Source of the DNA: Candidatus Magasanikiibacteriota bacterium
GTDB lineage: Bacteria; Patescibacteriota; Patescibacteriia; Magasanikbacterales; UBA922
DNA: 64,000 nt
Direction: 5' to 3'
Assembly (NCBI GenBank): GCA_003510435.1
Contig: DOMK01000013.1
Span: 12,135 to 76,134, forward strand
The translations under genes and the position numbers were made by a program. A model generated the notes under the pieces. That model was given only the letters and a program-made list of their open reading frames with translations, was not told the origin of the DNA and ran no database searches. Shown here piece after piece: positions 4,546-63,654 of the stretch; within the stretch, counting starts at the first letter, position 1, and each line of letters begins with the position of its first letter.

Positions 4546-6395
4546 AAACTCCTCCGCCCAATTCAGACCAAAAAAGACAAATTATGGGAGCAATCCTTAG
4601 TCAGATTGTGGCCAAACAAATACTCCCGGCTTTATTAAAAGAAGAATTTGCTAAACATCTAATAAACCCAGCAAATTTTCTACCAAATTCAATAAATGAA
4701 ACTCTGGCCGTAGATCCAGCTCAATATATCAGCCCTGTCCTTTCTAATATAGGCATGCAAAACCCAAACATAAATCCTAAAGACATTGTTGGTAATTTTG
4801 GATCAAATAATTCTAGTTTACAACCATCAACCACAGCTGATTCAACTATTCCAAACCAAGGTGGTAATACTGGAACTTCAACTCCAGATACCACACCACA
4901 GGCAGATGCTGACCAAAATGGATCTCCTGCTAATAAAAATGGTCAATCAAAAAATGATTCAGACCAACCACAGGCAGATGCAGATGCAGATAAAGACAAA
5001 GAAAATCCTGATGACGATGATAAAAAAAATGAAGCCAAAAATCCAGAAGCAACGACTGATTTAAATAATCTTGATACGCCAGCTGATAAAGCTGTTAATA
5101 CAGATCAACCGACTGGTTCTGGTCAAAATCAAAATGTACCTGGATCAACCACCCAGCCTGGACAACAAGTTGGTCCTGGTGGTGTGGTAACCAATCCAAC
5201 TCAAGCAGGAGCACCTGGACAAAATACTCCTGGGAGTAATACACCAAATTCACCAACCACACCAGGAGCTAATGCTCAACCTGGTATGAATCCAAATGTT
5301 AGTAATCCAGATACAAAAGATGATAATGCAGATGCAGGCAAAGATGAAAATATTGATGAGGACGATAAAAAACCAGATGAAGACAAACTAGATGGTGAGG
5401 GTGATGATAAAAAAGAACCTGATGATAAAGATAAAGACGGTGACAAAAAAAATGATGAGAATGATAAAAATAGTGGTGACAAAACAAAACCAGATGAAAT
5501 ACCCTCAGGTTATTACGACCCTTATGCCAATTCAAAAGATGGTACGCATGCGGGATATTTTAATCCTGATGCGTCAAAAGAACAAACACCAGTCATAGAT
5601 GAAACAGGAAGAGACAGAGGAGCTACCATAACCCCAGAAAAAAAACCAGGGGATGGTTATTACGACCCTTATGCCAATTCAAAAGATGGTACGCATGCGG
5701 GATATTTTAATCCTGATGCGTCAAAAGAGGACGAAGATAGGGATGAAAGCAGTGACTCTCCATTTGGTGTTGAAAACCAAGACTTTGGCGGTATGAATAT
5801 GCCAAATCAACAAGAAGACCAGGAATCAGATGACGATACTCCACAAGATGGTAAAAGTGAACAACAGCCAGATAAAAAATCAGATTCTGATAATGACGAA
5901 CAAAAAGAAAAAAAACAAAAAATGGAAAACGAAAAAGGAAGCATGACTCAATTTATAAATCAAAATATAATAAACAGAACAAAGATAAACGGCCTAGAAC
6001 AAGAGATAAAAAATTTAGAAAACCAAGCTAATGATCTAAATAAAAAAAATGATGATTTAGATAAAAAAATTAAAGAATTGGAACCAGAATCAATTAAAAA
6101 ATTAAGGGGCATACAAACATTTATGGGAGGTTGTAGTTGTTGTTCTTGTATTTTTTTACCCATATCTCTTATTTCCTCAATATCAACAGCCTTAATTGAA
6201 TTATTTATCCAAATTAAAAAAAAGAAAGAACATGAAAATAAAGCTGAGATTGAAAAACTTGAAGAAGAAAAAAAAGCAAATACTAAAAATCTTAAACAAA
6301 TTAATAAACAAATTAATAAAATAGCTAGGGATATATACAATTTGCGAAACACAGGAATGATGAAAGGAATGGCCAATAATATGTTCAGACACTAG
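4542..6395 (+). CDS. hypothetical acidic low-complexity protein with an internal exact repeat and a C-terminal Cys-rich hydrophobic segment
   Basis: 617 aa, rich in P/T/G/D/K/N. The 25-aa unit GYYDPYANSKDGTHAGYFNPDASKE occurs twice. A C-terminal coiled coil flanks GGCSCCSCIFLPISLISSISTALIELF. Confidence 0.45.
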   Translation: MKTPPPNSDQKRQIMGAILSQIVAKQILPALLKEEFAKHLINPANFLPNSINETLAVDPAQYISPVLSNIGMQNPNINPKDIVGNFGSNNSSLQPSTTADSTIPNQGGNTGTSTPDTTPQADADQNGSPANKNGQSKNDSDQPQADADADKDKENPDDDDKKNEAKNPEATTDLNNLDTPADKAVNTDQPTGSGQNQNVPGSTTQPGQQVGPGGVVTNPTQAGAPGQNTPGSNTPNSPTTPGANAQPGMNPNVSNPDTKDDNADAGKDENIDEDDKKPDEDKLDGEGDDKKEPDDKDKDGDKKNDENDKNSGDKTKPDEIPSGYYDPYANSKDGTHAGYFNPDASKEQTPVIDETGRDRGATITPEKKPGDGYYDPYANSKDGTHAGYFNPDASKEDEDRDESSDSPFGVENQDFGGMNMPNQQEDQESDDDTPQDGKSEQQPDKKSDSDNDEQKEKKQKMENEKGSMTQFINQNIINRTKINGLEQEIKNLENQANDLNKKNDDLDKKIKELEPESIKKLRGIQTFMGGCSCCSCIFLPISLISSISTALIELFIQIKKKKEHENKAEIEKLEEEKKANTKNLKQINKQINKIARDIYNLRNTGMMKGMANNMFRH

Positions 6396-19355: not shown

Positions 19356-20738
19356 ATGAATTTTGATCAAGCCTACAATTTCATTCTTTCTTTAAGCAAC
19401 CTACCACGAAAAGAATACATGACCGATCCACGACATTGTGGTTGGTATCTTAAACGTCTACAATTTTTTTTAGATTTAATAGGCAATCCAGAAAAGAAAA
19501 TCCCCCACTATATTCATGTGACCGGTACGAGTGGTAAAGGTTCGGTGACAGCCTATCTACATTCTATTCTTCAGGCTTCTGGAAATAAAGTTGGTTCCAC
19601 CTACTCTCCCCACCCCACCATAATTACTGAACGCTGGAAAGTGGAAAACAAATTCATGACCAAAAAAGAATTTGCTGAGATTGTTGAATATATAAAGCCA
19701 AAACTTGATGAATACATTGCCAAAACTCCTTATGACATGTTATCTTTTTTTGAAGTCACAGAAGCGATTGGTCTATTATTTTTTGCAAGAAAAAAAATAA
19801 AATGGGCCGTAATGGAAGTAGCTTGTGGCGGTCGAACTGATGCGAGTAATATTATTCCTTGGAAAGATGTAGCTATAATAACAAATATTGGCGTAGACCA
19901 TATCGGAGTTCTAGGTAATAACAAAAAAGAAATTGCCTATGAAAAAGCTGGCATAATCAAAAAAGGCTCCAGTGTTTTTACCATGGAAAAAAATTCTCAG
20001 ATAAGAAAAATGATTGAAAATGAATGTAAAATACAAAAAATTAAAAACTACTATTATATAAAATCTGGCAAGTTATCAAATGCTGGCATAAACTCAAATG
20101 GCAGTACTTTCGCTTATCATGACGAAACTTTTCAGACTCACGCTCTTGGCCAACATCAAATAAAAAACATTATTCTCTGTATAGAAGTAGCCAAACATTT
20201 AAAAATTTCTACTCATGACATCCAAAAAGGCTTGGGCCATGTCTACCAGCCACTAAGAATGGAAGTCATAAACAAACATCCATTAATAATCTTAGATGGT
20301 GCCCACAATCCTGACAAAATGAGAACCACAGTTGATACACTCAAGCACCTTAGCACCCAAACACCCGAGCACCAGTCTAAAAACTATAACCTACCTGCCC
20401 GCGATGCTAATGCAAGCGTTGCAGGCGGGAAACCTAAAACCTGTAATCTACATTTAATCGTCGGTTTTTCTGGAGACAAAAATATTTCTAAAATGATAAA
20501 ACAACTAGCAACTCTTAAACCAAAAACTATTGCTATTACCAGAAATACCACTAACCCTTTTCGCAAGGTCGCTGATCTACAAATAGTGACCAAATCATTT
20601 AAAAAGTTATTACCAAAAGCTCAAATAAAAATATTTCTTGATCCTCAGACAGCGTTTGACTGGAGTAAAAAACAAACCAAAAAAAATGATATTCTTCTCT
20701 CTACTGGTTCTATCTTTACCAGTGGACAATTGAGGTAA
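19356..20738 (+). CDS. Mur-ligase family protein, folylpolyglutamate synthase/dihydrofolate synthase-like
   Basis: 460 aa. P-loop HVTGTSGKGS and the Mur ligase central and C-terminal layout. Contains a 36-bp in-frame GC-rich element (aa 347-358). Confidence 0.7.
   Translation: MNFDQAYNFILSLSNLPRKEYMTDPRHCGWYLKRLQFFLDLIGNPEKKIPHYIHVTGTSGKGSVTAYLHSILQASGNKVGSTYSPHPTIITERWKVENKFMTKKEFAEIVEYIKPKLDEYIAKTPYDMLSFFEVTEAIGLLFFARKKIKWAVMEVACGGRTDASNIIPWKDVAIITNIGVDHIGVLGNNKKEIAYEKAGIIKKGSSVFTMEKNSQIRKMIENECKIQKIKNYYYIKSGKLSNAGINSNGSTFAYHDETFQTHALGQHQIKNIILCIEVAKHLKISTHDIQKGLGHVYQPLRMEVINKHPLIILDGAHNPDKMRTTVDTLKHLSTQTPEHQSKNYNLPARDANASVAGGKPKTCNLHLIVGFSGDKNISKMIKQLATLKPKTIAITRNTTNPFRKVADLQIVTKSFKKLLPKAQIKIFLDPQTAFDWSKKQTKKNDILLSTGSIFTSGQLR
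20394..20429. repeat. 36-bp GC-rich element inserted in frame (encodes PARDANASVAGG)
   Basis: cctgcccgcgatgctaatgcaagcgttgcaggcggg. A second copy lies in reverse orientation at about 34416-34454, encoding PARNASASVAGG. Confidence 0.7.
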
Positions 20739-25991: not shown

Positions 25992-26198
25992 ATTTTTTAC
26001 TAATCCCGAACCCGCCGTAGTCCGTCAGCTGACGGACGAAGGTGGGGAGGGATCCCTTTTCTATGAATCAAAGGCTGGATTACACCCAAACCTTCGTACC
26101 AGTCGAAAGCGAGATCTCTCCACTCGGAGTTAAATTTATTAATTAATTATTCTATGAAAGTTTTATTATTATTTGGCGTCATGATGACACGGAAAAGG

Positions 26199-26226
26199 GA
26201 TTCCTCACTGACGTTCGGAATGAAGG
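26199..26226. repeat. GC-rich cattccga...ggaatc element overlapping the parA 3' end
   Basis: gattcctcactgacgttcggaatgaag. Its reverse complement encodes the last residues HSERQ and the stop of ParA. Confidence 0.5.
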
Positions 26227-27027: not shown

Positions 27028-27170
27028 GTATCCACAAAAGATATGCCCAGATGCCTGCCTGCCGACGAGGCAGGGCGGAACTGGTACCATGAACCACAAG
27101 GATTCATGACCATACACCCCACGTGGTGCATGGGACGCACAGTATTATTTACAAGAACACAACCAAATAT

Positions 27171-27257
27171 GCCCAGATGGCGGAACTGGTAGACGCACTG
27201 GACTCAAAATCCAGCGGTCGCAAGACCATGAGGGTTCGATTCCCTCTTTGGGCACCA
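27171..27257 (+). tRNA. tRNA-Leu (anticodon CAA), class II with a long variable arm
   Basis: 87 nt ending in an encoded CCA. Anticodon loop CTCAAAA, long extra arm CGGTCGCAAGACCAT, T-loop TTCGATT. The 3' end lies 7 nt before the next ATG. Confidence 0.8.
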
Positions 27258-30847: not shown

Positions 30848-30894
30848 CATTCCGACCCGCCGATGAGGCGAGGGAGGAATCTTTCCCACCTCGG
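30848..30894. repeat. GC-rich element cattccgacccgccgatgaggcgagggaggaatc in the scpA-scpB spacer
   Basis: About 40 bp, near-identical in reverse complement to 50705-50745 (cattccgaacccgccgatgaggtgaggtgaggaatc). Confidence 0.6.
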
Positions 30895-34172: not shown

Positions 34173-34508
34173 TTATTTTAATGGCAATTTTTCTTGCCGT
34201 TCATTTAATAAATCTTGACTAATTTTAACCCCTTTTTTTGTTAAGCTAACATGGGTAATAAACCATTTGTGTGGCGTCCGTCGACCAAAACCAGTCATAA
34301 ATTCTCTATCAATCAAATGTTCCAAACTTCTAGTAATAATACTTTCTTGATATTTTTCTTTGGCTGGTTCAATTGTCTTACCATAAAAACTCCGGAATAT
34401 TTTCCTGTCTATTTTCCCCCCGCCTGCGACGCTTGCACTAGCATTGCGGGCAGGTCCTTTGTCTAAACACATTAATAAAATATGTTTTTGCAGTAAACTC
34501 AATCTCAT
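34173..34508 (-). CDS. small hypothetical protein whose N-terminal region is encoded by the 36-bp GC-rich element
   Basis: 111 aa, basic. Residues PARNASASVAGG come from the same element found in the folC-like gene. M13 is an alternative start. Confidence 0.35.
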   Translation of the reverse strand: MRLSLLQKHILLMCLDKGPARNASASVAGGGKIDRKIFRSFYGKTIEPAKEKYQESIITRSLEHLIDREFMTGFGRRTPHKWFITHVSLTKKGVKISQDLLNERQEKLPLK

Positions 34509-34586
34509 AAATTTAGGAATTAGGAGTTAGGGCTAGATGCGAGAAAAAATTCCCGCATCTCATTCCTTATTCCCTACTCCCAATAT
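34509..34586. repeat. structured spacer element (taggaattaggagttaggg ... gatgcgagaaaaaattcccgcatc ... ccttattccctactccc)
   Basis: A related copy lies at 46051-46135 (ttaggatttaggaattag ... gatgcgggaat ... ccctaactcctaattcc). Confidence 0.55.
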
Positions 34587-36380: not shown

Positions 36381-36561
36381 ATAGCATTGATTTAAACAGA
36401 TTAAAACTGATTCAGACAAAAAATTTACCACAAAATCTCTGTGTAATTCTGTCTAAAACAATGCTTATATCTTAGCAAAAACTAACCGATTTGGCAAGCA
36501 AAAAACACACCAATTTTGATGTGCTTTTGAGTCGTCCCGAAGGCGCAGACGACCTTCGGGT

Positions 36562-36771
36562 TCATTCCTTCTTCCTCCTCGAGGGGAATGCCTCCTTGAT
36601 GACACGGTACTCGGACCACGTCATCCACTGACCAGGCACAACACCGAAGATCTCACTGGGTGTTCGCCTGCCACCCGTCTTCTCCGACGGAATGCACTCA
36701 TCCAGCGCTTCCGGCGGGTAACGACGCAGTTCGTCCGTCTGAACAGATTTTAGTGCAAACACCTTGGGCAT
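36562..36771 (-). CDS. GC-rich 69-aa hypothetical protein (mini-cassette 3)
   Basis: MPKVFALKSVQTDELRRYPPEALDECIPSEKTGGRRTPSEIFGVVPGQWMTWSEYRVIKEAFPSRRKKE. It has its own TATAAT (plus 36799-36804) and a GGAG RBS, followed by a GC-rich double hairpin and a T-run (36494-36560). GC content is clearly above the surroundings. Confidence 0.5.
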   Translation of the reverse strand: MPKVFALKSVQTDELRRYPPEALDECIPSEKTGGRRTPSEIFGVVPGQWMTWSEYRVIKEAFPSRRKKE

Positions 36772-36873: not shown

Positions 36874-37905
36874 TTATTTTATTCCGTATAATCCGTGTTT
36901 CTGCATCTTCACCATAAAAAACCCTTCAATCTCTTTACTTGGTATTATCCGTAAGGCTTTTTTAACTACTTCTTTATTAATCTCTCTTTCCTTCCATGTT
37001 CTAACAATCGGCAATTTATTAACTCCACTCAACTCAATTGGCAACAACTCACAATTTGTATTTTGCTCCATGAATTTTGTTATTTGCAGTTCATTCTCTT
37101 CTGGCGCAAACGTACAAGTTGAATAAACCAAAATTCCCCCTGGTTTTAACATTTGCCAAGCTGAGAACAACAACTTGCGTTGTAAATAAGCTGTATCTTT
37201 AATATTTCGTTCTTGCCAAAAACCATATGTGGTTGGTTTGTCTAAAATAATTCGCGCTTCGGCAGTACAGGGCGCGTCAAGTAAAATCTTATCAAAATAA
37301 TTTGGGTATAATTTAGTCAATTCTACTCCATTTTCATTTTTTAATTCTAATTTCCAATTGTTATTATCACCTATTACACCCAACAATTCCAAATTATGTT
37401 CTAATTTTTGAAATCTAACTTTATCTACGTCATTGGCCACAAGTTCACCTTTTGGTTTTCTTCCGCCCAAGGCGGATTCGTCTGGGTCGAACATCAACGC
37501 AGCAATCTGCGAAGTTTTACTCCCTGGAGCAGCCGTCAAATCTAAAACCTTTTCGCCAGATTGCGGATTCAAAACTAAAGGTGGTACCATACTCGCCAAA
37601 CTTTGTACATAAATTTTTCCTTGTTTATACAAATCCAAATCCTGCAGTTCACGCAGAGTTTTATTTTTCAAAATAAAAGCATCTTTATACCAAACAACAT
37701 TATCTGTTTTAAATCCCAAATCAAACAAAGCCTGTCTAATTTCATTTTTATCAGCTTTAATAGTATTTACCCGAAAAGTTGTCGGTCGTTCTACAAATGT
37801 CTGCTGAATTTGGGTACACAAAGAAACGCCGAACATTTCTGTTAGGCGTTCAATAAATTTTTCTGGTAAATTATGACTATGTTTTTTATTCATTTTATGG
37901 TTCAA
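36874..37905 (-). CDS. 16S rRNA m5C methyltransferase, NOL1/NOP2/Sun (RsmB-like) family
   Basis: 343 aa. SAM-binding motif DLTAAPGSKT and catalytic DAPCT region (DKILLDAPCTAE). Confidence 0.75.
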   Translation of the reverse strand: MNHKMNKKHSHNLPEKFIERLTEMFGVSLCTQIQQTFVERPTTFRVNTIKADKNEIRQALFDLGFKTDNVVWYKDAFILKNKTLRELQDLDLYKQGKIYVQSLASMVPPLVLNPQSGEKVLDLTAAPGSKTSQIAALMFDPDESALGGRKPKGELVANDVDKVRFQKLEHNLELLGVIGDNNNWKLELKNENGVELTKLYPNYFDKILLDAPCTAEARIILDKPTTYGFWQERNIKDTAYLQRKLLFSAWQMLKPGGILVYSTCTFAPEENELQITKFMEQNTNCELLPIELSGVNKLPIVRTWKEREINKEVVKKALRIIPSKEIEGFFMVKMQKHGLYGIK

Positions 37906-41488: not shown

Positions 41489-41799
41489 ATAAATTACATC
41501 AATTTTAATCTGTTTAAATCTGTCTAAATCAATGCCAAAATTAAAGACTCTCCCGTCGGGGAGAGTCGTTTGTAGTGTTAGTCTGTTTTAGGACACTAAA
41601 AAACTCGCCCGCCGGGTTGGGGTGTATTATTATTAGTATTACTTGTCTGCCGTAGAGGCAGATTTGTTCGAAACATTTGTCTCATATGTTTAAATAATAC
41701 AACTACTTTTGAATAACGTCAAATAACTTATCCACACCGCACTAGAACCTCCTTACAGTCGGTTCGGTGCAGTGCAAGCACCTTTAAACAAAAGCACCA

Positions 41800-41913: not shown

Positions 41914-42084
41914 ATGGAATTAATCCTGGCAATAATCCTCGGCCTGATTGGGTTTGCCATCCTGAAGCTGATTCTTCGCACCGCTCTGTTCGGTGTAAAG
42001 ATCGGCTGTGGGTTGCTCACCCTCGCCATAATACTCGCGATCGTGTCGGGCCTGTGGCTGAAAGCCGGGGAGGGGTTCGTGTGA
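41914..42084 (+). CDS. GC-rich 56-aa hydrophobic peptide with two predicted TM helices (mini-cassette 1)
   Basis: MELILAIILGLIGFAILKLILRTALFGVKIGCGLLTLAIILAIVSGLWLKAGEGFV. Strong RBS. The stop codon sits in the loop of the hairpin gggttcg-tgtgaa-cgaaccc. Codon usage is GC-rich, unlike neighbouring genes. Confidence 0.5.
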   Translation: MELILAIILGLIGFAILKLILRTALFGVKIGCGLLTLAIILAIVSGLWLKAGEGFV

Positions 42085-42131
42085 ACGAACCCGCCCATTA
42101 TTAATTTTATATTTTAAAATTAATATAGGAT

Positions 42132-46050: not shown

Positions 46051-46135
46051 AATTAATTAGGATTTAGGAATTAGTAATAAGATGCGGGAATTTCTCTCGC
46101 CTCAAGCCCTAACTCCTAATTCCTTTTTTATATAA
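46051..46135. repeat. second copy of the taggaatt / gatgcgggaat / cctaattcc spacer element
   Basis: See 34509-34586. Confidence 0.55.
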
Positions 46136-47819: not shown

Positions 47820-48479
47820 TTATTTCAAAATTTTTTCAATTTCCTTATCAACTTTATCAATATCAATCTCACCATCTACAGTTTTTAAGACTCCCAAATC
47901 TTGGTAATAATCCAAAATTGGTCTAATGGCTGTATTCCCTTGTTCAATAATTCTCTTTTTGGCTGACTCGGGATTATCATCTTCACGAATTATTAATTTA
48001 CCCCTACATTCTGGACAATCAAACTTGGCTTCATTTTCTAGAGAATAAGGCAATATATATCCACAATCTGGACAAATTTTACGTCGAGTCAAACGATTAA
48101 AACTAGTCTTGTCAGATAAAGCAATTTCAATTACCAAAATTTCATTTTCTAAACGCTTGTTAGTAAAATATTCTTGGTATTTTTTGGCTTGCTCTACATT
48201 GCGAATCGCCCCATCTAACAAAACCCCTCTACCTGAATCTAAATTTTTATCCATAGCCGAAAAAGCTAGCTTGTATATCAAATCATCAGCTACTAGTTTA
48301 CCAGCTTTCATGTCATCTAATTTTTGTTTATCTGTTGGGTCAGCATTTGGATCTTTATCCAAAGCGCGCAATAAATCTCCAGTGGAAATATGCGCCAAAT
48401 CATATCGACCAACTAATTTTCTTGCTTGGGTGCCCTTACCACTCCCGGGGACGCCCATTAATATTATTACTTTTTTCAT
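47820..48479 (-). CDS. adk: adenylate kinase with a Zn-lid
   Basis: 219 aa. P-loop GVPGSGKGTQ and lid cysteines CPDCG...CPEC. Confidence 0.9.
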   Translation of the reverse strand: MKKVIILMGVPGSGKGTQARKLVGRYDLAHISTGDLLRALDKDPNADPTDKQKLDDMKAGKLVADDLIYKLAFSAMDKNLDSGRGVLLDGAIRNVEQAKKYQEYFTNKRLENEILVIEIALSDKTSFNRLTRRKICPDCGYILPYSLENEAKFDCPECRGKLIIREDDNPESAKKRIIEQGNTAIRPILDYYQDLGVLKTVDGEIDIDKVDKEIEKILK

Positions 48480-48552
48480 AGCATTGATTAAAACTGATTT
48501 AGACTGATTTAAACGATTAAATTTCTGTTTTAATCTGTCTAAATCAATGCTT
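48480..48552. repeat. TIR-bounded spacer element, copy D (gcattgattaaaactgatttagactgattt ... ctgtctaaatcaatgc)
   Basis: Near-identical to 52760-52844 over about 70 bp. Confidence 0.7.
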
Positions 48553-48834
48553 TTACAATTGATTATAATAATTTTTAAACACTGTCATTAATCCTTCTTT
48601 ATCATCATGACTTATTTTTCCACTAACACGTAAATGATGCAACACATCACGAATCTTTTGCAAAGAAATCATATGCTGACCATCACGAGCAGCCAAAATA
48701 GCCAATTCTACGGTTTGTTCATCATGATAATTTAAAGAAGCTACTTTATGTTGTGAAACCAAATGTCTGACAGCTTCACTATGTAGATGATGTCCTGTGG
48801 TAGAATATTTTGTACTAGAGCCAAATATTGACAT
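48553..48834 (-). CDS. hypothetical His-rich small protein
   Basis: 93 aa with many His residues (HHLHSE, HHLRV). No motif recognised. Confidence 0.35.
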   Translation of the reverse strand: MSIFGSSTKYSTTGHHLHSEAVRHLVSQHKVASLNYHDEQTVELAILAARDGQHMISLQKIRDVLHHLRVSGKISHDDKEGLMTVFKNYYNQL

Positions 48835-50595: not shown

Positions 50596-50745
50596 TCGTT
50601 TCATTCCGAGTTTACGAGGTCGAAGATACTCTTGAGTGAATCTTTTTTACCCCGCGACTCTTTAAAACCATTGGCTAATAATTTGAAAAAGTTTATTTTA
50701 GAAAAGATTCCTCACCTCACCTCATCGGCGGGTTCGGAATGAACT
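50596..50745. repeat. two GC-rich short elements in the rplO-secY spacer
   Basis: About 50598-50641: cattccgagtttacgaggtcgaagatactcttgagtgaatc, related to 18472-18536. About 50705-50745: gattcctcacctcacctcatcggcgggttcggaatgaac, the reverse complement of 30848-30894. Coordinates are within about 3 nt. Confidence 0.6.
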
Positions 50746-52210: not shown

Positions 52211-52759
52211 TTAACTAGCAGATTTAGCCGCTGTCTTACCTTCTTTACGGCGGATAACTTCTTCAAGATATTTAATTCCTTTACCTTTGTAAGGTTCTGG
52301 TTTTCTAATTTTTCTTACTTCGGCTGCTACATTACCCAACAATTCTTTATCAGAACTTTCCAATGTAATTAGATTCTTTTCTACCCCAGCTGTCACCGTG
52401 TTTGGAATTTTGTAAATTACTGAATGGGAAAAACCAACTTCCAGTTTCAAATCTTTACCTTGCATGGCCACTTTATAACCCACACCATTAATTTCTAATT
52501 GTTTTTTAAATCCAGTTGTTACACCAGTCACCATATTTTGGATGTGAGAAGAAAAAGTTCCCCACAAAGAACGTTCCGATTTTTCATCTTCATTTTTAAC
52601 TGATACAGAAATAACGTTGTCCTCAATCTTAACACTCACTTTATCATTAAGCTTGCGAGTCAAAGTTCCTTTTGGACCTTTTACCAAAATTTCATCTGCT
52701 TTTAGATCAACGGTTACTCCAGCTGGAATTTGAATTGTTCTTTTGCCTATACGTGACAT
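52211..52759 (-). CDS. rplF: 50S ribosomal protein L6
   Basis: 182 aa starting MSRIGKRTIQIPAGV. Confidence 0.9.
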   Translation of the reverse strand: MSRIGKRTIQIPAGVTVDLKADEILVKGPKGTLTRKLNDKVSVKIEDNVISVSVKNEDEKSERSLWGTFSSHIQNMVTGVTTGFKKQLEINGVGYKVAMQGKDLKLEVGFSHSVIYKIPNTVTAGVEKNLITLESSDKELLGNVAAEVRKIRKPEPYKGKGIKYLEEVIRRKEGKTAAKSAS

Positions 52760-52844
52760 AGCATTGATTAAAACTGATTTAGACTGATTTCAGATAATTA
52801 AACATCTGTTTTAATCTGTCTAAATCAATGTTTATTTAGTTTAT
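52760..52844. repeat. TIR-bounded spacer element, copy E, between rpsH and rplF
   Basis: gcattgattaaaactgatttagactgatttcagataattaaacatctgttttaatctgtctaaatcaatg. Confidence 0.7.
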
Positions 52845-53237
52845 TTAATATACTGAACAAATAATTTCTCCACCAATACCCAATTTACGAGCTTGCTTAT
52901 TAGTCATAAAACCTTGTGAAGTGGATATAACCGCCACACCAAAGTCATTCAAAATTCTCGGCATTTCCTCGGATTTGCGATAAATACGATAACCTGGCTT
53001 ACTCACCCGAACCAAAGATCTAATTTGTGGTTCTCGGTCATTGTATAAAAGCTCAATGGTTAATTTCTTTACTGGCTTTTCTTCCACAATTTCAACTTTG
53101 CCCACATATTTTTCTTGAGCCAAAATATCAGCAATCGCTTTTTTTACCTTTGAAAAAGGTAACACAATATTTGCCCGTCTTGATAATTGGGCATTGCGTA
53201 TGCGAGTTAACATGTCTGCGATAGGATCGGTCATCAT
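52845..53237 (-). CDS. rpsH: 30S ribosomal protein S8
   Basis: 130 aa starting MMTDPIADMLTRIRNA. Confidence 0.9.
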   Translation of the reverse strand: MMTDPIADMLTRIRNAQLSRRANIVLPFSKVKKAIADILAQEKYVGKVEIVEEKPVKKLTIELLYNDREPQIRSLVRVSKPGYRIYRKSEEMPRILNDFGVAVISTSQGFMTNKQARKLGIGGEIICSVY

Positions 53238-54563: not shown

Positions 54564-54661
54564 AACATTGATTTCACTGATTTATTATATTTGATTACAC
54601 TGATTTGGAGGATGTCTTTTATATCTGTGAAATCCATTTCCAAATCTGTGCAATCAATGTT
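54564..54661. repeat. TIR-bounded spacer element, copy F, between rplN and rplX
   Basis: acattgatttcactgattt ... tgtgcaatcaatgtttta. Confidence 0.65.
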
Positions 54662-55033
54662 TTATAAGACTTCAGGCGCTAATGAAATAATTTTTTGGAA
54701 ACCTTTGGTTCTAAGCTCTCTAGCGACTGGTCCAAAAATACGTGTTCCTTTTGGTTCTTTACTTTTTTTGTCAATAATTACAGCGGCGTTATTATCAAAA
54801 CGGATATATGTACCATCCTTACGACGCATTTCTTTTCTTTGACGAACAATCACAGCATGAACAACATCACCTTTCTTTATGGCGGCACGTGGAGCAGCTT
54901 CTTTGACAGCACAAGTAATTACATCACCAAGGAAGGAATAACGTTTTTTATACCCACCCAAGACACGAATACATTGTAATTTTTTTGCGCCAGAATTGTC
55001 TGCCACTTCTAACATTGATCTATGCTGGATCAT
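54662..55033 (-). CDS. rplN: 50S ribosomal protein L14
   Basis: 123 aa starting [18 protein letters not shown]. Confidence 0.9.
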
Positions 55034-55517: not shown

Positions 55518-55626
55518 ACAACATTGATTTAACTGATTTATATTGATTTCACAGATTACTTACGTATTTTTTGATTATCAATTCGTATTCAGTGTAATCT
55601 ATTTTCTTAATCTGCGCAATCAATGT
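55518..55626. repeat. TIR-bounded spacer element, copy G, between rplP and rpmC
   Basis: acattgatttaactgattt ... atctgcgcaatcaatgttt. Confidence 0.65.
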
Positions 55627-56040
55627 TTAGTCCTTTTTAATAAATTTAACTTTGGTTGGTAATTTATAACCACTCAAGAGTAAAGCTGTTCTAGCTTCGC
55701 TTTCCAAAATACCATCCATTTCCATCATTACTGTACCTGGTTTGATAGTACAAACATAATGATCCGGTGCACCTTTACCTCCACCCATTGGAACTTCGCT
55801 ACCTTTTTTTGTTACTGGTCTATCAGGAAAAATTCTAATCCAGATCTTACCACCACGACGAACATAACGAGTCAGTACACGACGAGCTGCTTCAATTTGA
55901 CGAGAGGTCACCCAAGCATGATCAAGAGCAACAATACCAAAAGCGCCAAAAGCTAAAGTGTTTATACGGCTGGCCACTCCTCTATTCTTATGACGTGGCT
56001 TGTGCCATTTTCTATGTTTTACTTTCTTGGGTAACAGCAT
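55627..56040 (-). CDS. rplP: 50S ribosomal protein L16
   Basis: 137 aa starting [14 protein letters not shown]. Confidence 0.9.
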
Positions 56041-58458: not shown

Positions 58459-58565
58459 ATTTTATAACACAGATTTCACAGATTATTTAGAATGATTCCA
58501 CAGATTTGATAGATTTGGCTCGTTTACATTCAGTGAAATCTATTTTAATCCGTGTAATCAATGTT
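58459..58565. repeat. spacer element, copy H, between rplW and rplB (cacagattt words plus the right terminus gtaatcaatgtttt)
   Basis: Shares the right TIR and the word structure with copies A-G. Confidence 0.55.
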
Positions 58566-59024
58566 TTAAACCCCTTCATGGACATTGACTGTCTCACCTT
58601 TTGCCAAGGTGACAATCGCTTTTTTCCAATCACTGGTTCTACCTTTTTTTCCTCTGGTATTTTTAGCTTTACCTTCTCGATTCATTATTCTTACTTTTAG
58701 TACCTTTACATTATAAATTTGTTTTATAATATTTCTTACATCCACTTTGGTCGCAGCTTTTTCTACAGAAAAAGTATAAGAATTATGACTTTCAGCAATC
58801 GCAGCTTTTTCACTTATCACAGAAGAAAGTAAAACCTTATAAGCCTGTCCATTTATTTTTTTTGTTAAATCACTTTTTTTAACTTTGTTTACTGTTTCAG
58901 TAGCATTATTATCAACTACAGCCTCAACTTTTTTCTCAACCTTAACTTTAGCAGTCGCTTGTTTAGGAGCAACGGCTTTGGCTTCAGCAGTACTTTTCTT
59001 TTTAAATTTATCTAATAAACCCAT
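58566..59024 (-). CDS. rplW: 50S ribosomal protein L23 (with a K/A-rich N-terminal extension)
   Basis: 152 aa. The L23 core lies in the C-terminal 95 aa. Confidence 0.85.
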   Translation of the reverse strand: MGLLDKFKKKSTAEAKAVAPKQATAKVKVEKKVEAVVDNNATETVNKVKKSDLTKKINGQAYKVLLSSVISEKAAIAESHNSYTFSVEKAATKVDVRNIIKQIYNVKVLKVRIMNREGKAKNTRGKKGRTSDWKKAIVTLAKGETVNVHEGV

Positions 59025-63062: not shown

Positions 63063-63395
63063 ATGGCGATTGTCACCATCCGGTTGTACCGGAAAAATGG
63101 CAAAAGGGGGGTTGAGGTAATCAAAAAAAAGCATTACCCGCGCCTCCAACGGTCACTTACCCGCTACATGGCCTCGGTCGATGGAGAACACCTCGCCCGC
63201 TCATGGAACACAGCAGGGCTGGCCGAGGTAGACGGTGAATGGTTTGTCACCGTCGATGGAGATGGTAAGGCCAGCATGCCGGAAAAACTGAGAAGCCATC
63301 TCTGGATCTACTATGGCTTCAACAGGTTCCTAGCAAGGATCTACAAGGGCCTAACCAGTGACGATGAACACCTTCCCGCCTTTCGCCCCTCCTAG
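63063..63395 (+). CDS. GC-rich 110-aa hypothetical soluble protein (mini-cassette 4)
   Basis: MAIVTIRLYRKNGKRGVEVIKKKHYPRL.... RBS AAGGAGG 5 nt upstream. A TTGACA box lies at 62990-62995, with a weak -10 TAGGAT after a 19-nt spacer. Very GC-rich relative to its neighbours. An alternative upstream ATG at 63024 lacks an RBS. Confidence 0.45.
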   Translation: MAIVTIRLYRKNGKRGVEVIKKKHYPRLQRSLTRYMASVDGEHLARSWNTAGLAEVDGEWFVTVDGDGKASMPEKLRSHLWIYYGFNRFLARIYKGLTSDDEHLPAFRPS

Positions 63396-63654
63396 CGTTC
63401 GCTTCGCCCCGGTTCAGGGGCAACATGCCGGTTGCGCGTCAGCCGATGACCGAGAGGGAAAACCCTCCGGGTGTCGGAGGGTGTGAGCATGCGGACAATA
63501 CAACGAAAGAATCGTCCACCACAGCTAGATTTTCATTATTGAAAATTTAACTAAGGAGTTTGGGACGATTTTTTTGTTTACACAAGCAATCCTATCCCCT
63601 AACCCCTTTCCCCTACAAAAGGGCAAGGGGAATTAAAGCCCCTCCACTTTTTAA

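Follow-up and report, generated by a model that had tools for sequence, protein, structure and literature searches.

The 36-mer described here represents a very small palindromic insertion element whose near-identical copies are spread over several phyla of uncultivated bacteria. It occurs twice in the window (the whole 64-kb stretch of DNA that was analysed), each time within the reading frame of a protein-coding gene. The element enters DNA as an exact 36-bp unit and, as judged from filled and empty orthologous sites, a target-site duplication is not obligatory.

Sequence and folding of the element

Copy 1 (CCTGCCCGCGATGCTAATGCAAGCGTTGCAGGCGGG; 20394-20429, forward strand) lies in frame F1 of a FolC-like gene, where it encodes PARDANASVAGG, residues 347-358 of a protein of 460 amino acids; its coordinates and in-frame position had been given exactly in the initial annotation. 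Copy 2 (CCTGCCCGCAATGCTAGTGCAAGCGTCGCAGGCGGG) occupies positions 34419-34454 of the reverse strand and encodes PARNASASVAGG, residues 19-30 of a 111-aa ORF, again in F1. The near-identity claimed for this reverse copy was borne out (33 of 36 nt, on opposite strands and in unrelated genes), as was the common frame relative to the element, and only its approximate coordinates (about 34416-34454) had to be corrected. At a limit of 3 mismatches the window contains 2 matches to the element and 100 dinucleotide shuffles contain 0; no further copies are present in the window at up to 10 mismatches.

The element is GC-rich in AT-rich surroundings, as had been noticed (67% GC versus ~34% for the window), and is an imperfect palindrome within the 20-40 nt size class of REP sequences. 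On folding, copy 1 forms a hairpin of 14-15 bp (-23.6 kcal/mol, z = -4.9). Its ends are partially self-complementary, but the simple cctgcc...ggcagg pairing proposed earlier does not apply: the 3' end is GCAGGCGGG, and the 5' CCTGCC pairs with GGCGGG via a G.T pair, or CCTGC pairs with GCAGG. The register of the fold is ambiguous, the full-length and the inner hairpin being both compatible with the data. Watson-Crick covariation was noticed at positions 11/21 only (AU 15, GC 10 and UA 9 among distinct variants, equalled by 0 of 500 shuffles), 20 of the 36 positions being fixed by the search pattern. No known structured RNA family was matched: with the Rfam 15 covariance models the window gave nothing at gathering threshold, and four loci gave no meaningful match at E<=1. 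Copy 1 is flanked by the direct repeat AACCTA (20388-20393 and 20431-20436, forward strand), situated within degenerate (A)AACCTA units.

Distribution and conservation

The genome-wide search suggested in the initial annotation revealed hundreds of further copies in public genomes and metagenomes, the coding ones mostly in the same frame. Among the 120 matches listed for a degenerate pattern in species-representative genomes, at least 118 are genuine stretches. By label, the matches listed include at least 51 from Patescibacteria, at least 46 from PVC phyla (Verrucomicrobiota/Lentisphaerae/Kiritimatiellia), at least 13 from Gammaproteobacteria, at least 4 from Bdellovibrionales, at least 1 from Fibrobacterota and at least 3 from unclassified bacteria; these labels are the submitters' own, and among the low-GC "Gammaproteobacteria" MAGs some may bear the wrong one. 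More than 190 copies have a length of precisely 36 nt, and the unit is near-invariant across genomes of 33-64% GC, with free positions more than 90% conserved, the apparent conservation being inflated by the 20 of 36 positions that the search pattern fixes. CPR contigs of 0.8-1.2 Mb carry at least 1-2 matches each. About half of the copies are intragenic, and their hosts and positions are unrelated (AtpA, Tgt, a peptidase, Mur ligases, a toxin, intergenic arrays). A phage or plasmid vector was considered and rejected, with 4 matches in 2.9 million viral contigs and none among PLSDB plasmids and INPHARED phages. Keyword searches found no published description of the element, and its sequence string matched only an unrelated primer.

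Host proteins and reading frame

The first host gene (19356-20738, forward strand) encodes the FolC-like protein of the Mur-ligase family, with Pfam Mur_ligase_M and Mur_ligase_C matches and orthologues in Candidatus Magasanikbacteria and other Patescibacteria. The second (34173-34508, reverse strand) encodes the conserved small protein of 111 aa, for which a winged-helix-like fold is predicted, and is syntenic between aspS and scpA. The FolC-like insert had been assigned to the junction between the central and C-terminal domains. This assignment has to be abandoned: the Mur_ligase_C match ends at residue 333 and the insert is modelled in a loop (342-358) which precedes strand 365-369, so that its predicted position is inside the C-terminal Mur-ligase domain, past the first beta-alpha unit. 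In the small protein the insert is modelled in a disordered loop (18-30). Each insert lies, according to the structure models, in the sole low-confidence, unstructured loop of its host, in agreement with the surface position envisaged earlier; peptides such as ...INQKPARNASASVAGGKENV... are the predicted translation of the insert.

F1 is the frame of 32 of the 38 coding copies from low-GC genomes (p = 3e-14), and the same frame is used by 28 of 32 coding copies of the window's own subtype in the metagenome sample. The length of 36 nt is divisible by three and four of the element's six frames are open, which is why a gene that receives a copy keeps its reading frame. Intergenic copies show no orientation bias, hence the frame bias is to be seen as a selection filter, and a bias in the orientation of insertion was rejected as its source. 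Coding DNA is thus shown to retain almost only F1, which gives the flexible segment P-A-R-x-A-x-x-S-V-A-G-G in a surface loop, and both the FolC-like and the small winged-helix-like protein fit this pattern. It can be said that the element is usually translated as a harmless 12-residue loop. The preference for F1 over R1 (32:1) exceeds what peptide chemistry obviously explains.

Filled and empty sites and insertion preferences

The alignment of FolC orthologues, recommended in the initial annotation, confirmed that the 12-residue peptide is absent from those of 72-76% identity. The insert site is a loop of widely differing length among orthologues, and due to this variability no clean empty site is demonstrable in FolC. 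The scenario of an ancestral peptide with no other copies, named in the same annotation, is excluded by these orthologues and by the many further copies. Two loci taken for FolC orthologues sharing the insertion (L146 and L161) were rejected, since their copies are intergenic.

In the small ORF, 27 of 34 orthologues read ..EKGGK.., and the difference amounts to exactly 12 codons. The window and the empty-site orthologues L008 and L009 differ by exactly 36 nt: the empty site in L009 is GACAAAGGA|GGGAAG, and the filled window site is the same with 36 nt added. When loci are ordered by AspRS identity to the window, the site is empty in L008 (95%), filled in L005 (88%), empty in L009 (84%) and filled in L006 and L007 (~75%), and the filled sites hold differing sequence subtypes. 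Such comparisons show that presence at an orthologous site is independent of phylogeny. ATP synthase alpha (AtpA) likewise has exactly 12 additional residues versus solved structures, and the exact +36 nt cases of the small ORF and AtpA led to the rejection of an obligatory target-site duplication.

The element is shown to favour DNA prone to repeats or hairpins, and among such sites is the loop apex of another of its own copies. Family-wide, direct repeats spanning the element (LCS>=7) reach 17.4% versus 4.6% (p = 5e-9), and host hairpin apexes serve as sites in 6.2% versus 0.8%. Direct repeats of varying length (0-12 nt) flank the element at a minority of sites. Junction preferences are weak (A at -1 in 56% versus 36% in the background, C/G at +1), and no other target-sequence motif was found. 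Nested copies are always inverted, always at position 17|18, and abut without extra bases, with a triple self-nest at L028 and double nests at L127 and L037; tandem arrays occur at L058 and L082, and adjacent copies in general stand head to tail at 36-nt spacing or are nested. Loop-deletion variants of 32-33 nt also exist. These variants and the self-nests were all that the search for orphan halves and X...Y pairs returned, and the idea that the element represents the fused ends of a larger transposon was rejected for lack of an X-cargo-Y parent. No recurrent transposase was seen in ~1 Mb of flanks, where the 3109 clustered ORFs are housekeeping families only.

Association with GIY-YIG nuclease and tRNA genes

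The hairpin family is shown to occupy regularly a module in which the hairpin splits a duplicate of the tRNA 5' fragment; a gene for a 78-aa GIY-YIG nuclease comes next and the intact tRNA last. The module was found at L086 (two tandem units), L105, L035, L039, L137, L144, L165 and L138. When nuclease loci were picked regardless of the element, the hairpin stood upstream and the tRNA downstream in 4/4, and the element lies within 142 nt upstream of 9 of the 15 GIY-YIG ORFs in fetched loci. The hairpin precedes the start codon of the nuclease gene by 12-45 nt and can have either orientation. Of 24 GIY-YIG proteins with an N-terminal extension, at least 15 start with a translation of the element in F1, F2, R1 or R2. 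The 78-aa protein (PF01541, E = 3e-15) comprises the catalytic domain alone, without a DNA-binding domain, and its family counts at least 558 clusters. The duplicated tRNA 5' end flanks the nuclease ORF at at least 8 different tRNA genes, a footprint which homing of the GIY-YIG cassette may have left. Pseudo-tRNA fragments adjoining a nuclease gene accumulate several different hairpin variants.

The window holds a remnant of the module (27043-27086, forward strand), namely a tRNA-Leu 5' fragment split by a hairpin: GCCCAGATG (tRNA nt 1-9) is followed by the 21-nt hairpin CCTGCCTGCCGACGAGGCAGG (27054-27074), which has CCTGCC...GGCAGG ends as in the element, and by GCGGAACTGGTA (tRNA nt 10-21). 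The intact tRNA-Leu(caa), whose first 21 nt are those duplicated in the remnant, lies downstream (27171-27257, forward strand). The remnant has no nuclease ORF, nor does the 64-kb window contain any GIY-YIG ORF; in L007, syntenic with the remnant site, a GIY-YIG gene is present there. Next to copies in high-GC PVC genomes no GIY-YIG gene was seen. The module, the cross-phylum spread and the self-nesting go beyond what the initial annotation had described.

Proposed origin and mobility of the element

With some reserve, we lean towards the view that the two copies in the window are solo representatives of a family of 36-bp GC-rich imperfect-palindrome insertion elements which encode nothing themselves, and that the GIY-YIG module is the source of their master copies. 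The module would be a mobile, horizontally spreading cassette of the homing type, supplying the master copies and probably the nicking activity; solo copies would be seeded at single-stranded or broken DNA, and those in genes would be neutral to slightly deleterious passengers without host function. GIY-YIG nucleases hydrolyse DNA and, to our knowledge, do not transpose it, therefore mobilisation by such an enzyme would need a ligase or repair step. Causation might also be reversed: the hairpin could serve the cassette as a target, an operator or a stabiliser, or hairpin elements of any kind might accumulate in the pseudo-tRNA fragment because it tolerates them. Patchy presence could reflect precise slippage loss instead of repeated gain. 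A bolder proposal, which is advanced only tentatively, is that the 36-mer, with its length variants, acts in cis within a two-part mobile system that has so far escaped recognition, its partner being the minimal 78-aa GIY-YIG cassette, whose nuclease would recognise or nick the hairpin. The cassette would then lodge in front of tRNA genes through duplication of their 5' end, the hairpin would be moved by excision and pasting, or by copying, to breaks and single-stranded loops throughout the genome, and the horizontal spread of the cassette would hold the hairpin sequence near-identical across phyla.

Among the rival explanations, it is unlikely that the element is of the REP/REPIN type and owes its mobility to a HUH tyrosine transposase (RAYT, IS200/IS605 family) which is encoded by a single-copy gene and attacks single-stranded hairpins in trans, the GIY-YIG link being incidental because both settle in the same tolerant DNA. 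A length of 36 nt, an imperfect GC-rich palindrome, the missing target duplication, apparently precise loss and single-strand-prone sites suit "peel and paste" transposition, and REPs inside genes are documented (PMC3733652). However, an unpaired terminal GTAG/CGTC is absent (the sole GTAG stands in the reverse strand, at the apex of the loop), the sequence 5' of the element shows no conserved target of 4-5 nt, ~1 Mb of flanks contained no recurrent Y1 transposase, and the GIY-YIG link holds in all four unbiased loci; few copies in CPR genomes and identity across phyla also fit poorly with REP/RAYT systems, which are described as lineage-specific and vertically inherited. The chances are equally poor that no dedicated enzyme exists and that the element is captured, through template switching or end joining that starts from an existing copy, wherever DNA breaks or forks stall, with tandem repeats, hairpin apexes and tRNA fragments cut by the nuclease being simply the places of breakage. 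Such capture would agree with the enrichment at hairpin apexes, at the element's own apex and between direct repeats, with the several hairpin variants in pseudo-tRNA fragments beside the nuclease gene and with the weakness of junction preferences. Templated patch repair, on the other hand, normally leaves variable boundaries, which here are exact in well over 100 copies; nests are always inverted and always at 17|18, and the cross-phylum identity still requires a horizontally moving source.

Near-invariance across phyla, the 11/21 covariation, the constant 12-45 nt position before the nuclease start in either orientation (as for a dyad site) and the strong sense-strand bias in genes would all be expected of a selected cis-element, i.e. 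an operator or recognition site of the GIY-YIG protein or another factor, or an mRNA stability or translation hairpin, with genic copies serving host or cassette. This is nevertheless improbable, since the hosts and positions are as unrelated as AtpA, Tgt, a peptidase, Mur ligases, a toxin and intergenic arrays, a copy can be missing from close relatives with nothing else changed, tandem and self-nested copies resemble proliferation, and intergenic orientation is unbiased and Rfam gave no match. Practically no credence is given to the absence of any insertion, with the 12 residues as ancestral or convergent low complexity in a variable loop and the DNA identity due to chance: the length-variable FolC loop, where a clean empty site is not demonstrable, would permit it, but it is refuted by 0 shuffle matches, 33/36 identity on opposite strands, the exact 36-nt indel and the hundreds of copies.

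Significance

The concept of "selfish DNA inside protein-coding genes", known mainly from Rickettsia, is hereby extended to the Candidate Phyla Radiation and PVC bacteria. A 12-codon unit in core enzymes (ATP synthase alpha, Tgt, Mur ligases, FolC) affects alignments, phylogenies and structure models, while the 36-mer itself is usable as a simple marker of gene flow among uncultivated lineages. Near-identity of 36 bp of non-coding DNA across phyla of 33-64% GC is hard to reconcile with REP-type repeats and points to an active horizontal source, for which the pseudo-tRNA fragment with its hairpin / GIY-YIG gene / tRNA module is a concrete and testable candidate. The module may also offer a handle on the movement of other tiny palindromic repeats, including CGTC-type REPs and mitochondrial GC clusters. 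If the two-part system were true, no smaller bacterial mobile element with a partner of its own would be known, and essential CPR proteins would be continually supplied with 12-residue loop insertions.

Comparison with known systems

Like the protein-coding palindromic repeats reported in Wolbachia, Rickettsia palindromic elements (RPEs) are inserted, without loss of frame, into unrelated protein-coding genes in reduced, AT-rich genomes, and the extra peptide segments translated from them are tolerated at the protein surface. The RPE-like reading of the initial annotation is right as to behaviour, as the element is an in-frame palindrome in unrelated genes with its peptide in a tolerated position (F1 in 32/38 and 28/32, loops, AtpA +12). 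Membership was rejected on length, host range and end tag. RPEs are ~100-150 bp long, form a long hairpin and are restricted to Rickettsia (and relatives), whereas the element has 36 bp, is found in Patescibacteria, PVC phyla and others but not in Rickettsia, and shares no sequence with RPEs as tested. RPEs are defined as having a CGTC tag at one end (PMC3733652), in contrast to the untagged CCTGCC and GGCGGG ends of the element. Unlike RPEs, the element inserts into the loop of its own copies and is linked to the GIY-YIG/tRNA module.

REPs and REPINs resemble the element as 20-40 nt GC-rich imperfect palindromes with no target duplication, genic occurrence and clusters. They carry a terminal GTAG/CGTC tag, whereas the element has none and no RAYT was seen in ~1 Mb of flanks, and REPs number tens to hundreds of mostly extragenic copies, compared with few per CPR genome, about half intragenic. 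REP/RAYT systems are described as lineage-specific and vertically inherited; the sequence of the element is common to several phyla. Membership was therefore rejected on tag, copy number with extragenic bias, and lineage specificity. A MITE was rejected in view of the exact +36 nt, the absence of a fixed-length duplication and of an X-cargo-Y parent, and an IS200/IS605-derived palindromic element (PATE) because the conserved 5' target of 4-5 nt is absent, only A at -1 and C/G at +1 being preferred. A CRISPR repeat was rejected because loci hold 1-2 copies and no spacer-separated arrays. IS1397 and ISKpn1 are full insertion sequences which target REP loops; they have terminal inverted repeats, encode a DDE transposase and duplicate 3-4 bp of the target. 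Insertion at a palindrome loop is common to both and to the element, which has 36 bp and neither transposase, terminal inverted repeats nor duplications.

The mobile GC clusters of yeast and fungal mitochondria are short GC-rich palindromes of very AT-rich genomes, optional among strains; they are intergenic, sometimes located in reading frames, beside free-standing or intronic GIY-YIG/LAGLIDADG genes. They belong to another domain of life and their sequences are unrelated to the element, and we know of no tRNA-fragment module or single dominant frame described for them. Free-standing GIY-YIG homing endonuclease genes are exemplified by segB in the tRNA gene cluster of phage T4 and by I-TevI. 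No hairpin partner of Seg or Tev enzymes is known to us, and the module differs from them in having the catalytic domain alone and a conserved upstream hairpin which splits the duplicated tRNA 5' end. What it has in common with these genes is a small nuclease gene by tRNA genes, flanks which duplicate the target and, probably, the nature of a selfish cassette.

Two exact insertions in the window

The 36-bp GC-rich in-frame insert described by the initial annotation in the folC-like gene is present at 20394-20429 of the forward strand (CCTGCCCGCGATGCTAATGCAAGCGTTGCAGGCGGG), where it encodes residues 347-358 (PARDANASVAGG) of a 460-aa FolC-like protein with Mur_ligase_M and Mur_ligase_C domains (gene 19356-20738). 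The near-identical reverse copy was confirmed at 34419-34454 of the minus strand (CCTGCCCGCAATGCTAGTGCAAGCGTCGCAGGCGGG); it lies in a 111-aa ORF (34173-34508, minus strand), and its translation, PARNASASVAGG, uses the same frame of the element as copy 1. The copies mismatch at 3 of 36 positions (33/36 identical), and a search of the window allowing 3 mismatches returned exactly these two, with none in 100 shuffles. GC content is 67% in the element versus about 34% in the window, and on folding each copy forms a 14-15 bp hairpin with one internal mismatch (-23.6 kcal/mol and z = -4.9 for copy 1). Protein matches place the host organism in Patescibacteria, near Candidatus Magasanikbacteria. An inverted repeat of about 70 nt (arms 34515-34584 and 46056-46124, 82-87% complementary, AGGAATTAGGAGTTAGGGCTAGATGCGAG...) has one arm directly upstream of the small ORF.

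Each of the two copies in the window is an exact insertion of one defined 36-bp unit, which belongs to a widespread, highly conserved palindromic family. Among small-ORF orthologues 27 of 34 show ...EKGGK..., and the remaining seven have 12 extra residues at this point; in DNA, the empty site GACAAAGGA/GGGAAG of L009 (L-numbers are loci of other genomes and metagenomes) stands against GACAAAGGA, 36 nt and GGGAAA in the window. The gene is syntenic everywhere, with aspS on one side and scpA on the other, and identity of the neighbouring AspRS to that of the window served as yardstick of relatedness: the site is empty at 95% (L008), filled at 88% (L005), empty at 84% (L009) and filled at about 75% (L006, L007). 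Since occupancy does not track relatedness and the filled sites differ in subtype (...AATGCTAGTGCAAGC... in the window versus ...ATTGCTAAACAAAGC... in L005), the insert at this site must have been gained repeatedly, lost precisely or overwritten. In the proposed alignment of FolC the peptide is missing from orthologues at 72-76% identity, and an exact empty site is not demonstrable there because loop length varies widely among orthologues. Structure modelling, likewise proposed, located both inserts in low-confidence unstructured loops: the AlphaFold models are of good overall confidence (pLDDT 88.9 for FolC and 78.8 for the small protein), and in each the sole segment below 50, without secondary structure, holds the insert (342-358 and 18-30, respectively). 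The FolC loop lies inside the C-terminal domain of the model, not between the central and C-terminal domains as had been claimed.

The same FolC loop (alignment A1, about window residues 334-364) holds unrelated inserts in different orthologues, e.g. KYASMRIVQS...LAHLRTCKP, TIQQFNN/TVKQFNN and PSLRPGVAGRQ, and is thus a sink for insertions in general. In the small-ORF alignment (A2, columns about 72-115) a second hot spot follows ...GKTIE in L008, L009 and the further orthologues P0130, P0132 and P0144, with the repeat-derived peptides SFDSAQDKPA, HFGKTQCKPA and SGGLRRTSY...; in L146 this SAQD-type sequence also adjoins an element copy, which hints at additional families of in-frame inserts.

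Range and conservation of the family

The proposed search for further copies used the positions conserved among Magasanikbacteria copies (20 specified bases of 36) and matched at least 120 stretches in species-representative genomes; L067 and L126 were chance matches and were set aside. The genuine stretches, at least 118, have the consensus CCTGCCCGCAATGCTACGCATAGCGTTGCAGGCGGG. Classified by record title, under the taxon names given by submitters, they comprise at least 51 loci of Patescibacteria (many classes), 46 of Verrucomicrobiota, Lentisphaerae and Kiritimatiellia, 13 of low-GC "uncultured Gammaproteobacteria", 4 of Bdellovibrionales, 1 of Fibrobacterota and 3 unclassified; all these numbers are minimum values, and the proportions of taxa may be biased. 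Locus GC ranges from 33 to 64% among the matches listed. With 20 of the 36 positions fixed by the pattern, the free ones are mostly more than 90% conserved; less conserved are the loop and the covarying positions 11 and 21 (A-T 56, T-A 28, G-C 23, G-T 4 among the matches listed). Across 50 distinct variants, 95% of cells are paired in the full-length hairpin and 90% in an alternative inner-hairpin register; a pair with double changes, 11-21, is seen in the inner register alone, and 0 of 500 shuffles reach it. It follows that a palindromic structure or dyad is under constraint, and both fold registers fit.

Copy number is low in Patescibacteria (at least 1-2 matches per 0.8-1.2 Mb contig) and higher in some genomes of the Verrucomicrobiota/Lentisphaerae/Kiritimatiellia group, with at least 10 matches in Kiritimatiellia SO_2017_LW3_126. 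The element is rare in viral contigs (4 matches in IMG/VR, L130-L133; L131 and L133 have common flanks) and has no copy among 72,556 plasmid and 50,697 phage records. It has no match in Rfam, and the literature yielded no description of it or of the GIY-YIG/tRNA module discussed below.

Reading frame of coding copies

Four of the six frames of the consensus are free of stops; the TAG codons that close the other two lie in forward frame 3 and reverse frame 3. The proposed record of the frame at coding insertions gave a strong bias: in low-GC loci, to which the statistics are limited as ORF-based frame calls at high GC are unreliable and were left out, 32 of the 38 copies that fall within long ORFs use F1 (p = 3e-14) and only one uses R1 (F and R denote forward and reverse frames relative to the element). 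A metagenome scan for the loop subtype of the window found 68 stretches, all low GC, with 28 of 32 coding copies in F1. These add PAR[N/D/Y]ASA[S/N]VAGG to unrelated proteins, including ATP synthase alpha, a Tgt-like enzyme, an M24 peptidase, another Mur ligase and a PemK-like toxin; compared with solved structures, the ATP synthase alpha copy corresponds to a gap of exactly 12 residues after DTIINQK. Judged from sequence and structure models, coding copies are filtered to one frame and located in loops. Intergenic copies have no orientation bias towards neighbouring genes, so the F1 bias is a filter on tolerance after translation and does not stem from insertion itself; how strongly F1 exceeds R1 is only partly accounted for.

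Signs of proliferation and insertion sites

In L028 a forward copy is split between positions 17 and 18 by an inverted copy, itself split there by a forward copy; double nests occur in L127 and L037 and head-to-tail arrays of 36-nt period in L058 and L082, all junctions being free of extra bases. Apart from such self-nesting, no X-cargo-Y arrangement was found in the loci. The L058 array (1880-2450 and about 2650-2850, a MAG labelled Bdellovibrionales) has at least six units, is interrupted by an assembly gap of Ns and lies in F1 inside a 602-codon ORF whose product would contain PARNATHNVAGG as a tandem repeat. Loop-deletion variants of 32-33 nt, without 3-4 loop bases (CCTGCCCGCAGTGCTACAGCGTTGCAGGCGGG), occur in L015 (24-55), L025, L123 (1888-1919) and L058 (about 4221); a variant whose length is no multiple of three would be expected to be kept out of coding DNA.

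Short direct repeats flank the element more often than random positions of the same locus (longest common substring of at least 7 in 17.4% versus 4.6%, p = 5e-9); copy 1 has AACCTA on either side. Element sites are also enriched at apexes of host hairpins compared with mismatched flanks, the inverted-flank signal being weaker under a stricter same-locus control (p = 0.06), and the sole preferences at the junctions are A at -1 and C/G at +1. Because coding cases are exactly +36 nt, the repeats are not an obligatory target duplication; they may be read as a preference for slippage- or structure-prone, transiently single-stranded DNA. Several host hairpins with the element at the apex resemble GTAG-tagged REPs (Verrucomicrobiota).

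Other repeats were noticed as well. AT-rich degenerate intergenic repeats with a period of about 10 nt (TGATTTAAAC, AGATTAAAAC, AATCTGTCTAAATCAATG) lie in the window at 36381-36478, 41501-41549, 48478-48564, 52758-52845, 54643-54674, 55609-55640 and 58547-58578, and similar genome-specific short-period arrays flank many intergenic element copies elsewhere (L016, L073, L112, L128). A second GC-rich palindromic insert family, CATTCCGA(A)CCCGCCGATGAGGYGAGG..GGAAT, is found at 30848-30880 (plus), 50707-50741 (minus) and 26200-26222 (minus); its short form CATTCCGAACGTCAGTGAGGAAT supplies the last codons and stop of ParA (...SLHSERQ). The parA-parB spacer (26004-26057) contains a perfect GC-rich palindrome, GTCCGTCAGCTGACGGAC, with CCCGCC...GGTGGGG on its flanks. 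Four stretches of the AT-rich window (36529-36741, 37252-37492, 42036-42097, 63135-63497) reach 60-73% GC; none matches Rfam at gathering threshold, and they could be structured RNAs that have escaped recognition, or additional inserts.

The GIY-YIG/tRNA module

Comparison of flanks across loci gave one cross-genome cluster. In L086, L105, L035 and L039 the element stands 13-19 nt upstream of a 78-aa GIY-YIG-domain ORF, directly followed by an intact tRNA, and sits in a duplicate of the first 18-24 nt of that tRNA, splitting it after nucleotide 9 or 10 (e.g. GGGCGGTTA, element, GCTCAGTTG, ORF, GGGCGGTTAGCTCAGTTGG). These loci involve three different tRNAs, both element orientations and two subtypes, and L086 has the unit twice in tandem. 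The same arrangement recurs at tRNA-Leu(tag) in metagenomic L137, L144 and L165, and in L138 the pseudo-tRNA fragment is split by two other palindromes whose ends are related.

The association was also examined from the nuclease side in three ways that did not select for the element, with concordant results: 9 of 15 GIY-YIG ORFs in 1.33 Mb of loci have an element at most 142 nt upstream; at least 15 of 24 N-terminally extended family members start with the translated element or a close variant in F1, F2, R1 or R2 (e.g. PARNATHSVAGG, MLRIALQAG, PACNAMRSIAGR, PPATL...VALRAG); and each of the four 78-80-aa members that were chosen for their long contigs (L202, L204, L207 and L205, the last labelled Saganbacteria) has one or two family hairpins 12-45 nt upstream and a tRNA 3-8 nt downstream of the ORF, the hairpins clearly splitting a duplicated tRNA 5' end in three. 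Module hairpins measure about 20 to 46 nt with common ends CCTGCC/CCCGCC...GGCAGG/GGCGGG. The hairpin family is an integral part of the module.

No GIY-YIG ORF was found in the window, which has a nuclease-less version at 27043-27086 (GCCCAGATG, CCTGCCTGCCGACGAGGCAGG, GCGGAACTGGTA): a 21-nt hairpin (CCTGCC...GGCAGG) splits a duplicate of the tRNA-Leu 5' end about 80 nt upstream of the intact tRNA-Leu(caa) (27171-27257). In the syntenic relative L007 (15640-16130) a GIY-YIG gene separates parA from this tRNA, and a further partial tRNA-Leu copy there is split in the anticodon stem by CCTGCCTGCCGGCAGGCAGG. In L026 (about 5960-6300, minus) a 19-nt inverted repeat (CCCCACACCAAACAAGTTT...AAACTTGTTTGGTGTGGGG) brackets the GIY-YIG gene before tRNA-Tyr in place of the compact hairpin, and tRNA nt 1-8 are duplicated upstream. 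In L204 (about 1415-1455) an element variant in F1 forms the C-terminal tail of FtsH (...PRARIATQSVAGGEET, stop) 45 nt upstream of the GIY-YIG gene and tRNA-Ile, so that one copy is both coding and part of a module.

Possible origin of the element

From these sequences we infer that the module could be a selfish, horizontally moving cassette which would provide master copies of the element and perhaps a nicking activity, solo copies arising where DNA is single-stranded or broken. As GIY-YIG enzymes cut DNA by hydrolysis, a pure cut-and-ligate or repair-mediated route would be required, and this is the weakest step of the proposal. Alternatively, a RAYT-type transposase might act on the element in trans, the element might be captured at breaks independently of any enzyme, or the hairpin might be a target, operator or stabiliser of the cassette; as a stabiliser, for example, the split upstream direct repeat would protect it from deletion by repeat-repeat recombination. 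These readings are not mutually exclusive.

Comparison with known systems

The element resembles Rickettsia palindromic elements (RPEs) and intragenic REPs in behaviour, and the RPE-like character suggested by the initial annotation holds in this respect, with in-frame coding insertions in tolerated loops. It differs, however, from RPEs in length, taxon and the CGTC tag, from REPs in terminal tag, abundance and lineage specificity, from MITEs in the fixed target duplication, from IS200/IS605 derivatives in the target tetranucleotide and from CRISPR repeats in the spacers. Functionally, the element comes closest to the mobile GC clusters of fungal mitochondria and to GIY-YIG homing endonuclease genes that stand free in tRNA clusters (T4 segB, for example). 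The pairing of hairpin and nuclease has a substantial probability of representing a new kind of mobile system.
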